Source: a virus
Taxonomy: Duplodnaviria > Heunggongvirae > Uroviricota > Caudoviricetes
Direction: 5' to 3' (one strand)
Virus record (IMG/VR): IMGVR_UViG_3300029484_000045
DNA: 5,768 bases
Every line of letters starts with the position of its first letter. Position 1 is the stretch's first letter. The position numbers and the translations under genes are program-made. Of the stretch, positions 996 through 2,483 are shown piece after piece. The notes below the pieces were generated by a model, which had not been told where the DNA came from, ran no database searches, and was given only the letters and a program-made list of their open reading frames with translations.

Positions 996-1013
996 ATGTA
1001 GGATAACCAACAT
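996..1013. promoter_or_regulatory. Operator OL2-like
   Basis: ATGTAGGATAACCAACAT, 17/18 identical to the OR1 palindrome. Immediately upstream of the PL -35. Confidence 0.7.
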
Positions 1014-1019
1014 AAACTC

Positions 1020-1049
1020 TTGACACTCACATGTTGGATATCCTACATT
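1020..1049 (+). promoter_or_regulatory. PL-like early-left promoter (rightward in this window)
   Basis: -35 TTGACA at 1020-1025, 18-nt spacer, -10 TACATT at 1044-1049. Operator OL1 sits in the spacer and -10. Mirrors the cro promoter. Confidence 0.65.
1031..1048. promoter_or_regulatory. Operator OL1-like
   Basis: ATGTTGGATATCCTACAT, the exact reverse complement of the site at 217-234. Confidence 0.7.
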
Positions 1050-1060
1050 TGTTTTTAGAG

Positions 1061-1114
1061 TTGTGGTGAATGCGCAGGCTGATGCGCGAAAGACATTGCA
1101 GCTATTGCGGAAAA
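1061..1114 (+). repeat. 54-bp direct repeat, copy 1 (PL transcript leader)
   Basis: Identical 54/54 to 1730-1783 (offset 669 bp); 5 of the 6 preceding bases also match. Contains hairpin GCGCA-GGCTGA-TGCGC at 1071-1088. Confidence 0.95.
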
Positions 1115-1166
1115 GAGCTGTTCGGCGGGGCCATTAAACGCCCGTATCTGGAGGTTAAAGAACAAA

Positions 1167-1283
1167 ATGAAAGTCCAGATTTTAAACAATAGTGGTGAAG
1201 TCGTTTGGTCATACGACATAGCCGCTCCTGTAGATCAGAGCGGCGATAGCTGGACCAATGGGAAACATCAGATTATGGCTGGN
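1167..1283 (+). CDS. Hypothetical small protein, first ORF after PL, 3' end obscured by N-run
   Basis: ATG at 1167 with GGAGG at 1150-1154 (12-nt spacing, long). Translation MKVQILNNSGEVVWSYDIAAPVDQSGDSWTNGKHQIMAG then runs into the N-run. The downstream frame cannot be trusted: the track's frame gives an F/R/K-rich tail, while the frame from 1301 gives a more protein-like tail to a stop at 1454-1456. Confidence 0.4.
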
Positions 1284-1300
1284 NNNNNNNNNNNNNNNNN
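1283..1300. other. Run of 18 N (masked or unresolved bases)
   Basis: Seen directly. Lies inside the repeat-bracketed insert, so gene boundaries here are uncertain. Confidence 1.
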
Positions 1301-1373
1301 GTATTCTCTTTACGCCGTGCTTTGGAACAGGCTGAAGTATTTCCATCAGACCCTGAATGGAAATGGCCTTTTT

Positions 1374-1619
1374 CTATTTGTCCAAATTCGGAGAGCACAT
1401 TTCAGAAAATTGGTCAGAAAGTCGCACTCGAAGAGCATCAGCCAACTGTTTCCTGATTTTTTCAGGTAACTCGTCGGCATCGCAGAAACAACAACGCTCG
1501 ATCATGTTGAAAGCCGATTCGTAGAACTGTTTCTGCTGAGTGTCGCTGAGACAGGAAAAGAGCGACGTTACGATGATTTTATTAATTGCATTATCAAGTT
1601 CTTTTTCATCAAAAGTCAT
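1374..1619 (-). CDS. Hypothetical 81-aa acidic protein, antisense to the PL operon
   Basis: Minus-strand ORF with ATG (complement of 1617-1619) and SD AAGGA about 6 nt upstream. Product MTFDEKELDNAINKIIVTSLFSCLSDTQQKQFYESAFNMIERCCFCDADELPEKIRKQLADALRVRLSDQFSEMCSPNLDK is net acidic with 5 Cys. No family recognised. Confidence 0.55.
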   Translation of the reverse strand: MTFDEKELDNAINKIIVTSLFSCLSDTQQKQFYESAFNMIERCCFCDADELPEKIRKQLADALRVRLSDQFSEMCSPNLDK

Positions 1620-1729
1620 TTGATTTTCCTTTTATGTATACGGGCTTAAAAGGATACCACCGAGCCTGAAGTGGTGAAAAGACAGGCACATAACAGCTAA
1701 GTATTTTCAACCAGAGAGAATCCTTAGCG

Positions 1730-1783
1730 TTGTGGTGAATGCGCAGGCTGATGCGCGAAAGACATTGCAGCTATTGCGGAAAA
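1730..1783 (+). repeat. 54-bp direct repeat, copy 2
   Basis: Identical to 1061-1114. Followed at once by an N-run, so the true repeat length may be greater. Confidence 0.95.
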
Positions 1784-1794
1784 NNNNNNNNNNN
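1784..1794. other. Run of 11 N (masked or unresolved bases)
   Basis: Seen directly, adjacent to repeat copy 2. Confidence 1.
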
Positions 1795-1871
1795 CCCACC
1801 CGTCTGGTGTGCAACCTTCGCCAGGCACCGGGAGGCACCCGGCACCACAACTTTATGCTGTGTGTAGTCCT

Positions 1872-1918
1872 GGCGGTACCAGTTTGTACCCTTGCTTCCG
1901 GCTGGTACCGTCCTTTTT
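1872..1918 (+). terminator. Candidate intrinsic terminator / regulatory hairpin in the leader upstream of yfdP
   Basis: Perfect inverted repeat CGGTACCAG (1874-1882) / CTGGTACCG (1902-1910), extendable to about 13 bp with G-U pairs, loop about 15-19 nt, then C and a T5 tract (1914-1918). Each arm contains a GGTACC palindrome, so a protein-binding DNA site is an alternative reading. Confidence 0.4.
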
Positions 1919-2055
1919 ACAAAACAGAGAAGAGCATCACCGGACGACGGGCTCATAACCCAATCCATCCGGGCGGCTGCCACCGCAGGTGTTCTTCTCT
2001 GTTTTGTGGAGAAACCAACCGACCTTGCAGGGTCGATATGATGAGGAGCAGCAAA

Positions 2056-2418
2056 ATGGCTAGCGAACGCAGTACTGATGTGCAGGCATTTATCGGGGAG
2101 CTGGACGGCGGCGTATTTGAAACCAAAATCGGCGCAGTTCTCAGTGAAGTCGCTTCCGGTGTGATGAACACGAAAACCAAAGGGAAGGTCTCACTCAACC
2201 TGGAAATCGAACCATTTGATGAGAACCGTGTGAAAATCAAACACAAACTCTCATATGTTCGCCCGACTAACCGCGGGAAAATTTCCGAAGAAGACACCAC
2301 CGAAACGCCGATGTATGTCAATCGCGGTGGTCGCCTGACTATTCTGCAGGAAGACCAGGGACAATTACTGACTCTTGCCGGTGAACCTGACGGAAAACTC
2401 CGCGCAGCAGGTCATTAA
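2056..2418 (+). CDS. yfdP: YfdP-like prophage protein (120 aa)
   Basis: ATG at 2056 preceded by strong SD GAGGAG (2045-2050). 120-aa product MASERSTDVQAFIGELDGG... matches the length and position of E. coli CPS-53/KplE1 YfdP as I recall it. The longer track ORF 1732-2418 is rejected as the start. Confidence 0.8.
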   Translation: MASERSTDVQAFIGELDGGVFETKIGAVLSEVASGVMNTKTKGKVSLNLEIEPFDENRVKIKHKLSYVRPTNRGKISEEDTTETPMYVNRGGRLTILQEDQGQLLTLAGEPDGKLRAAGH

Positions 2419-2483
2419 TATCGTTCTTAATTAACTGATTATTTATCTCATCACTGAATATCTTTATATAGTGAGGACTTATT

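Follow-up and report, generated by a model that had tools for sequence, protein, structure and literature searches.

The virus record IMGVR_UViG_3300029484_000045 (Caudoviricetes), analyzed here over a stretch of 5,768 nucleotides (nt; the window), carries a long direct repeat on either side of two small convergent genes, between the predicted early-left promoter PL and the early gene yfdP. This repeat is probably a recombination scar within a structured-RNA gene of the STnc100 family rather than a pair of cassette ends, with its additional length being a product of the assembly. The insert between the two copies is real and represents a genuine mobile two-gene module of lambdoid prophages, which is present in 89 finished Escherichia coli genomes (at least 80% coverage of positions 940–2060) and 100% identical in an isolated phage, vB_EcoM-720R4. 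The locus is a case of ordinary lambdoid mosaicism, in which, as comparison with other loci shows, two phages recombined inside the RNA gene. Its main value lies in a caution: what strikes the eye as a "perfect repeat around a cassette" is phage mosaicism combined with a probable assembly error beside a run of undetermined bases (N-run).

The repeat and the structured-RNA gene

As given in the window, the repeat pairs positions 1055–1114 with 1724–1783 over 60 nt with a single mismatch (1059/1728). Its longest exact run comprises 55 nt (1060–1114 and 1729–1783), far beyond the chance expectation of approximately 0.015 exact 15-mer pairs per 5,768 nt and one base more than the perfect 54-bp repeat (1061–1114 and 1730–1783) of the initial annotation, where the copies had been taken for the ends or the duplicated target of a cassette gained at a conserved leader. 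Instead, the two copies belong to two variants of one RNA gene, a 5′ fragment of the variant termed type A and a complete copy of type B, the repeated part of which corresponds to the 5′ strand of the closing helix P1 and the first hairpin of an STnc100-like RNA. The presumed conserved leader is an STnc100-family structured RNA.

This RNA is located between PL and yfdP in SfV/CPS-53/mEp460-like lambdoid prophages without an N gene. It comprises 115–135 nt enclosed by the closing helix GUUGUGGUG…CACCACAAC; an intrinsic terminator and then a long hairpin come next. The RNA occurs in no fewer than three variants (A, B and C), which have the closing helix in common and unrelated interiors; in all of them the helix GUUGUGGU(G)…(C)ACCACAAC is directly followed by a 5-bp hairpin with a 6-nt loop, and the minimum free energy (MFE) fold of each is closed by a P1 of 8–10 bp. 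Type A is complete in phage mEp460 and many viral contigs. Its first 86 nt are identical to copy 1 of the window plus the next 31 nt, and past this point it runs …GAGAGTCTGAAATAACCGCAAGCCGGAGATCAGCACCGGTCACCACAAC into the same terminator and yfdP leader. Type B is carried by SfV, strain CT02 and most others, and type C is common. The Rfam model of STnc100 (RF02076) matches window positions 1699–1920 with 38.1 bits (E 9e-6) in a permissive scan, in which this copy is chimeric and contains 11 N. Uninterrupted type B RNAs reach 47.8 bits in L091 (gathering score 47) and 39.5 bits in SfV, and types A and C yield no match to the model at E<0.01. A multi-hairpin core closed by a UGGUG/CACCA helix and followed by an intrinsic terminator, the structural hallmark of STnc100, was found. 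Furthermore, type B copies from E. coli, Salmonella and Cronobacter exhibit a compensatory change of the terminal P1 pair from G-C to A-U and consistent one-sided changes in P4, while P3 covaries from U-A to G-C within GCGGGU/ACCCGC versus GCGGGG/CCCCGU (Salmonella and Cronobacter phage copies).

The arrangement of the locus becomes apparent from 92 loci (L numbers) which were sorted by their elements. At empty sites, the same repressor and PL lead straight into a complete type A RNA and then yfdP (L046, L055, L057) or into a complete type B RNA (L091). An alignment of related prophages, proposed earlier as a check, thus identifies the segment as an insert. Filled sites have, downstream of the same PL, the type A fragment, then both open reading frames (ORFs), a junction of approximately 85 nt and a complete type B RNA (L001, L003, L006 and several viral contigs). 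In SfV-like phages, the two ORFs, the junction and type B stand behind another leader, copy 1 is absent and a ClpX-type zinc-finger gene may or may not be present; this placement of the module behind an SfV-type leader was observed in 13 loci, some with and some lacking that gene. The unit of type A fragment plus module was found behind three different upstream contexts, which marks the RNA 5′ end as a boundary for recombination. Copy 1 is collinear with complete type A RNAs (mEp460, L057) for 86 nt through …AAACGCCCGT and divergent afterward. The left joint lies between positions 1145 and 1146 (…AAACGCCCGT|ATCTGGAGG…) and fuses type A position 86 to a sequence with which, in strain 730V1, the zinc-finger gene ends (…AAACGCCCGT|ATCTGGAGGTTAAAG…). 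In the window, the type A fragment is in this way attached to the ribosome-binding region of the plus-strand gene.

Comparison with other loci shows the course of events. One parent had this repressor and PL and carried a type A RNA, which breaks off after 86 nt and continues with the 3′ end of the zinc-finger gene from an SfV-like parent. From the latter come the two-gene module and the junction as well as yfdP and, ahead of it, a type B RNA in full. As types A and B are alike over their first ~20 nt, the recombinant product bears a 20-nt direct repeat, and it is only due to this shared beginning that a direct repeat exists. A site-specifically mobile cassette or transposable unit, with the repeats as attachment sites or a target-site duplication, would likewise account for a direct repeat bracketing an insert that is absent from otherwise identical prophages. 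Such an origin is nevertheless very improbable, given that the supposed ends are different RNA variants with only 20 nt in common outside the window, that a single fusion with the 3′ end of the zinc-finger gene makes up the left joint, and that SfV as well as Salmonella, Klebsiella and Yersinia prophages have the module but no copy 1. In addition, terminal inverted repeats are absent and no recombinase is encoded in or beside the module. On the grounds of these differing flanks, missing recombinase and inverted termini, and a module that does without copy 1, the locus was not assigned to the site-specific cassettes or transposons.

The slot between repressor/PL and yfdP is a variable accessory slot, as had been anticipated by the initial annotation, and holds other cargo in SfIV, PhiR49_1, mEp460 and strain 730V1; unique ORFs have been reported in this same slot of SfIV (PMC3851460). 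As in other cases of lambdoid mosaicism, where accessory genes ("morons") are exchanged at short conserved boundaries, the cargo of a variable slot between repressor/PL and the conserved early-left genes differs, and the exchange points correspond to conserved non-coding elements (RNA 5′ end, junction and SfV-type leader). In contrast to these cases, the boundary is a closing-helix strand of a structured-RNA gene here and the left joint is a one-off illegitimate fusion. The ends of structured-RNA genes may serve phage recombination as boundaries between modules. In some prophages (L002 1310–1960, which is 730V1; L011; L076; L088), the same slot contains a ClpX C4-type zinc-finger gene (67 amino acids [aa], Pfam E 1.3e-10) and a second, unrelated cargo that includes a 63-aa minus-strand gene (phrog_2605). 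In 730V1, two cargo units are arranged in tandem, both ending in the same junction.

The extent of the repeat and the N-runs

The window contains two N-runs (18 N at 1283–1300 and 11 N at 1784–1794), the second of which begins at the very first base past the exact 55-nt repeat. Compared to strain CT02 and phage vB_EcoM-720R4, the window is identical at 1282/1282 positions (1–1282) and 443/443 positions (1301–1743), and upstream of 1795 and outside the N-runs it differs from both only in the 40 nt at 1744–1783 which abut the second N-run. These bases match copy 1 of the relatives and not their copy 2. As given, copy 2 of the window reads …GAATGCGCAGGCTG…GCGGAAAA, followed by 11 N and CCCACCCG, whereas the type B sequence after GAATGCG at copy 2 of the relatives starts GCTCAGCGCACGCGGG… (GCTCAGCGCACGCGGGTTAAGG…). 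All other loci with the same left joint that reach copy 2 (20/20) have an unmixed type B sequence at copy 2, read AGTT at the site of the 18 N and are free of undetermined bases, and their copies 1 and 2 share only TTAG[A/C]GTTGTGGTGAATGCG (~20 nt). A repeat is present in the window, and its reported length is not reproduced in any of these loci. Since the 18 N stand for a mere 4 nt in all relatives, the lengths of the N-runs in this record are, judging from the related sequences, unfaithful as gap sizes.

Among 5426 finished E. coli genomes there was no contiguous match to the chimeric copy 2, and positions 1700–1925 were fully covered only by borrowing copy 1 from ~670 bp away; wherever such a genome was found, its copy 2 was type B throughout. 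The pattern of a type A tail followed by CCCACCCG within 30 nt had 0 matches in the viral, genome and metagenome collections. The chimera also lacks both partners of helix P3, which covaries in type B. It still folds, with a predicted energy of −51 versus −56.6 kcal/mol; folding energy was therefore discarded as a non-discriminating test of the chimera, and only the loss of P3 is informative.

Taking all its forms together, an assembly artifact is the likely source of the 40-nt extension, and the caveat in this respect which accompanied the initial annotation was justified. The contig may have been extended with reads from copy 1, or it may have been misjoined with or collapsed onto a second, 730V1-like joint of junction and type A fragment. 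An identity of 55 nt that follows one distinguishing base and ends at a gap would have the look of a contig end at a vertex of a k = 55 graph. A misjoin or a collapsed second copy is plausible because the joint junction-TTAGCG-type A really exists in 730V1-like prophages.

One particular form of the artifact would be that the source genome truly contains such a joint of junction, TTAGCG and type A fragment (730V1-like tandem modules) or a tandem 669-bp duplication, which was collapsed during assembly so that one insert is displayed and the type A joint wrongly abuts the 3′ half of type B across the gap. The exact joint occurs in 730V1, the CX04 plasmid and the viral contigs L098, L100, L102 and L104, many E. 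coli genomes carry 2–4 related places, and the 55-nt identity after the distinguishing base would fit a contig end in a de Bruijn graph at k = 55. However, no finished genome was seen in which this PL is combined with a tandemly duplicated module; taken by itself, a collapse is an unlikely explanation, if one of appreciable weight.

Several points weigh against an artifact within a recombined RNA gene. The artifact is deduced from comparisons between loci, and the RNA covariation is based on three lineages only. With just 15 exact nt shared by types A and B, most assemblers would hardly confuse the two, so that a simple mis-extension would presuppose that the genome also harbors another related prophage or a joint of the 730V1 kind. 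Finally, a rare true gene conversion from copy 1 to copy 2 would yield the same sequence, and the resulting chimera folds with a comparable predicted energy.

If the repeat were real in this way, the type A copy 1 would have converted the first ~40 variable nt of copy 2, giving rise to a true A/B chimeric RNA and a long direct repeat able to delete or amplify the module by homologous recombination. The sequence as given does show the chimera, which still folds and in which the total length is kept (51 vs. 52 nt), and a true repeat of at least 55 nt would also break a short-read assembly exactly at the end of the repeat. On the other hand, the chimera is unique among all loci and collections examined, and conversion needs homology on both sides; as there is none at the right end, an illegitimate end which happens to keep the length would have to be assumed. 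Conversion would also have removed the partners on both strands of the covarying helix P3, and the sole differences from relatives that are otherwise 100% identical coincide with the N-runs. We therefore regard conversion as improbable and an extension introduced by the assembly as the preferred reading.

The convergent gene pair

Both ORFs of the insert exist and are real genes, as had been assumed; the plus-strand ORF, however, is frame-shifted in the window as given by the 18 N, and its true product is a protein of 91 aa ending at 1456. Intact, this ORF measures 276 nt in L001 and in SfV (orf33). The 3′ ends of the two convergent ORFs overlap by 74–83 nt. As substitutions within E. coli are too few to decide on coding status, diverged loci were used instead. 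In diverged prophages of Salmonella, Klebsiella, Yersinia and others, both frames are open with the same convergent overlap, and in Salmonella, Klebsiella and Yersinia the plus-strand homologs exhibit 50–68% protein identity and the intact minus-strand ORFs 58–64%. Outside the overlap, differences by codon position amount to 97/64/175 for the plus gene and 74/49/169 for the minus gene. This strong third-position excess, together with frames that stay open across the divergence, identifies both ORFs as real and coupled coding genes, of which annotation pipelines call one or the other.

In diverged genomes, too, the pair comes first after repressor and PL, upstream of kilR-gam, exoVIII or yfdP, and these varied downstream partners mark it as an autonomous module. 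It can be described as a convergent two-gene module which prophages across the Enterobacterales keep in first place in the early-left operon. In the diverged loci, the hairpin ahead of the minus gene has changed less than the coding sequence, and its stem shows compensatory changes (CCAC/GUGG, CCGC/GCGG, CCACG/CGUGG). The anatomy of the module and the coupling of its two genes are established by these comparisons.

The minus-strand protein contains an invariant CCxC motif. Its AlphaFold2 model is a generic three-helix bundle (pLDDT 65), for which Foldseek returned nothing at E<0.9; the model of the plus-strand protein is unusable (pLDDT 43.5). An exhaustive profile search of 1.84 billion proteins retrieved only 19 representatives of the plus-strand family, which is therefore small; none of them has a Pfam domain. 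Some members are N-terminally extended, and one extension resembles the second half of a ClpX zinc finger. Sequence searches of Pfam, PHROGs, PADLOC, NCBIfam and PDB with both proteins led exclusively to families of unknown function whose cluster names all read "hypothetical protein." The pair is uncharacterized but already catalogued as phrog_3195 and phrog_3311. A role in superinfection exclusion, toxin-antitoxin activity or anti-defense, as had been suspected, is neither supported nor contradicted: PADLOC, Pfam, NCBIfam, PDB and fold searches gave no match to a known anti-phage defense or toxin-antitoxin system for either protein.

Convergent units with overlapping 3′ ends are known from type I toxin-antitoxin systems such as txpA/RatA and bsrG/SR4 of Bacillus subtilis. 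Like these, the module consists of small convergent units with an overlap (74–83 nt), resides in prophages and is always co-inherited. Unlike them, both partners encode conserved proteins, neither of which is hydrophobic or membrane-like, and no toxin-antitoxin or defense model matches. The plus gene would be expressed early from PL upon induction or infection, and the minus gene probably in the prophage, reading the other way from a hairpin-bearing leader of its own. Transcripts made from PL on induction would then be antisense to the minus gene, which would be shut off by transcriptional collision and by pairing of the two RNAs. Quite possibly, if with somewhat less than even confidence, the pair is an accessory module that sets a prophage-state function against an early-lytic one, for example a protein for exclusion or host modulation against an antagonist made early. 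Speaking against it, no promoter passed the scan for the minus gene, nor for the RNA within the junction, and reciprocal expression is a proposal only.

The RNA at PL and the flanking elements

The surroundings of the module represent a lambdoid immunity region, with the end of cro on the minus strand, a LexA/cI-like repressor (280–933) and a terminator, after which operator-like palindromes and a strong PL-like promoter are followed by yfdP, yfdQ (DUF2303), yfdR and later genes (Table 1). The PL assigned initially is plausible (TTGACA-18-TACATT at 1020–1049; 10/12 consensus matches in the promoter scan) and flanked by operator-like palindromes, and the segment indeed lies at the start of its transcript. 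This PL recurs in L001, L006, L057 and L091, and a PR-like promoter is present at 245–216 as its mirror image. A 19-nt operator-like palindrome (ATGTAGGATATCCAACAT) occurs three times (217–235, 996–1014 and 1031–1049), its copies overlapping the mirror-image PR-like and PL-like promoters with their common hexamers TTGACA…TACATT.

Table 1. Coordinates of features in and around the two-gene module of the window.
Feature	Position	Strand	Remarks
OL/PL	996–1049	+	Palindromes 996–1013 and 1031–1048; −35 TTGACA 1020–1025; −10 TACATT 1044–1049
Copy 1	1055–1145	+	86-nt 5′ fragment (1060–1145) of type A STnc100-like RNA, few nt past predicted PL start
Plus gene, 91 aa, phrog_3195	1167–1456	+	Frame broken in the window by 18 N (1283–1300)
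Minus gene, 81 aa, phrog_3311	1374–1619	−	Convergent with plus gene, overlapping its 3′ end over 1374–1456
Cargo-RNA junction with conserved hairpin (1656–1675), upstream of minus gene	1640–1723		Beside several different cargos
Copy 2	1724–1783	+	5′ end of RNA ahead of yfdP; type A sequence here, type B after GAATGCG elsewhere
11-N run	1784–1794		40 nt + 11 N in the window correspond to 52 nt of type B in relatives
Type B 3′ part	1795–1851	+	Helices P4, P5 and P1 3′ strand CACCACAAC at 1843–1851; identical to SfV type B
Terminator-like hairpin and U-tract	1872–1918	+	3′ end of RNA unit; corresponds to terminator element of Rfam STnc100 model
Very stable 89-nt hairpin, yfdP leader	1919–2007	+	Inverted repeat; MFE −45.5 kcal/mol, z-score −7.3
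yfdP	2056–2418	+	First conserved early-left gene downstream

The RNA begins a few nt past the predicted PL start in the immunity type of the window, at PL itself in L057 and L091, and up to ~300 nt downstream elsewhere; ahead of copy 2 there is a weak promoter-like sequence (AAGACA-17-TATTTT, 8/12) below the threshold of the scan. Its types are new sequence variants of a known family. Several of its features are those of the prophage small RNA (sRNA) family STnc100 (RF02076)/PasD, namely the location in prophages, the closing helix UGGUG…CACCA, a 5-bp hairpin (6-nt loop) preceded by a GAAU spacer, a CCGGGAGGCACCCGG hairpin that stacks on the P1 3′ strand, and the terminal intrinsic terminator; intact type B reaches the gathering score in L091, though not in SfV. 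Canonical copies of STnc100 are located in the late region downstream of stx2 (PMC12370729) and PasD near Q (bioRxiv 10.64898/2026.05.13.724894), whereas the RNA described here stands at the start of the early-left transcript and its types A and C are missed by the Rfam model. In these N-less phages, the PL transcript carries near its start an RNA of the STnc100 family whose cores appear to be swappable.

A second comparison concerns the put RNAs of HK022. Here as there, a structured RNA is located a few nt past the PL start (~300 nt downstream in other phages) and ahead of a terminator in phages that lack N (PMC9378689; PMC3851460), and phages of the present kind have been described as being without N (PMC3851460). 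However, the RNA shows no sequence similarity to putL or putR as read from the HK022 record and comprises 115–135 nt with 4–5 helices, as opposed to two stems and ~70 nt in put. Moreover, three unrelated interiors argue against one conserved RNA-polymerase-binding surface, and the core is deleted in some prophages (L018, L024). An HK022-type put antiterminator was thus rejected, as the sequence and predicted architecture of the RNA differ from those of putL/putR. The RNA may be either a leader-derived sRNA of the STnc100/PasD kind with its own terminator or a cis element affecting read-through. A bolder and rather unlikely proposition would combine a cis element at the PL start that governs read-through of its own terminator into the early-left operon, as a put-like or riboregulatory antiterminator with swappable cores A, B and C, with a coupled gene pair acting as a new prophage switch or defense/self-immunity pair under antisense PL transcription, and with conserved structured-RNA ends that double as recombination "linkers" shuffling accessory modules.

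The terminator-like hairpin has a folding z-score of −3.3 and is kept in nearly all yfdP loci; at the corresponding place, Cronobacter phage phiES15 has a canonical terminator. In this phage (L118 1700–1990), a type B-like RNA and the terminator are located between a DicA-type repressor region and kil without yfdP, which suggests that the RNA-terminator unit is portable among early-left operons of different lambdoid lineages. The long hairpin directly past the terminator forms a perfect stem of ~20 bp and is kept in essentially all yfdP loci. The N leader of phage lambda contains an RNase III-type processing site, and by analogy this hairpin might be one as well.

A 228-aa ORF (1732–2418) runs in frame from the RNA through yfdP. 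The corresponding long ORF is annotated in SfIV, and PGAP reports a "frameshifted hypothetical protein" over RNA, terminator and hairpin (L001 2279–2589; L008 2582–3262). These calls look like annotation artifacts over a non-coding structured RNA, upon which PGAP and older annotations place spurious or "frameshifted" ORFs. Likewise, a 40-aa ORF with a CxxC motif (1070–1192) gave only sub-threshold zinc-ribbon matches and stops after 25 codons in the complete type A RNA; it was taken to be due to chance.

The SfV-type leader (CAGGCAGGACGCCCACGAAGUAGCCGCC…GAUGAUUCGU) is a conserved non-coding element found in SfV (L005 1915–2020), L112 (2915–2985), L002 (1215–1290) and L115 (~2380–2420, reverse strand). 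Its hairpin covaries (CCUGG/CCAGG, CCCGG/CCGGG, CCGGU/ACCGG), and the element has no match in Rfam. In SfV and Salmonella it precedes the two-gene module, in Yersinia it is found downstream, and it may be another structured RNA serving as a module boundary. Lastly, a C4 antisense RNA (79.8 bits) and isrK (63.7 bits) are adjacent on the minus strand of L040 (727–915), upstream of the immunity region of a type C prophage, and correspond to a P1/P7-like antirepressor control module in a yfdP-type prophage.

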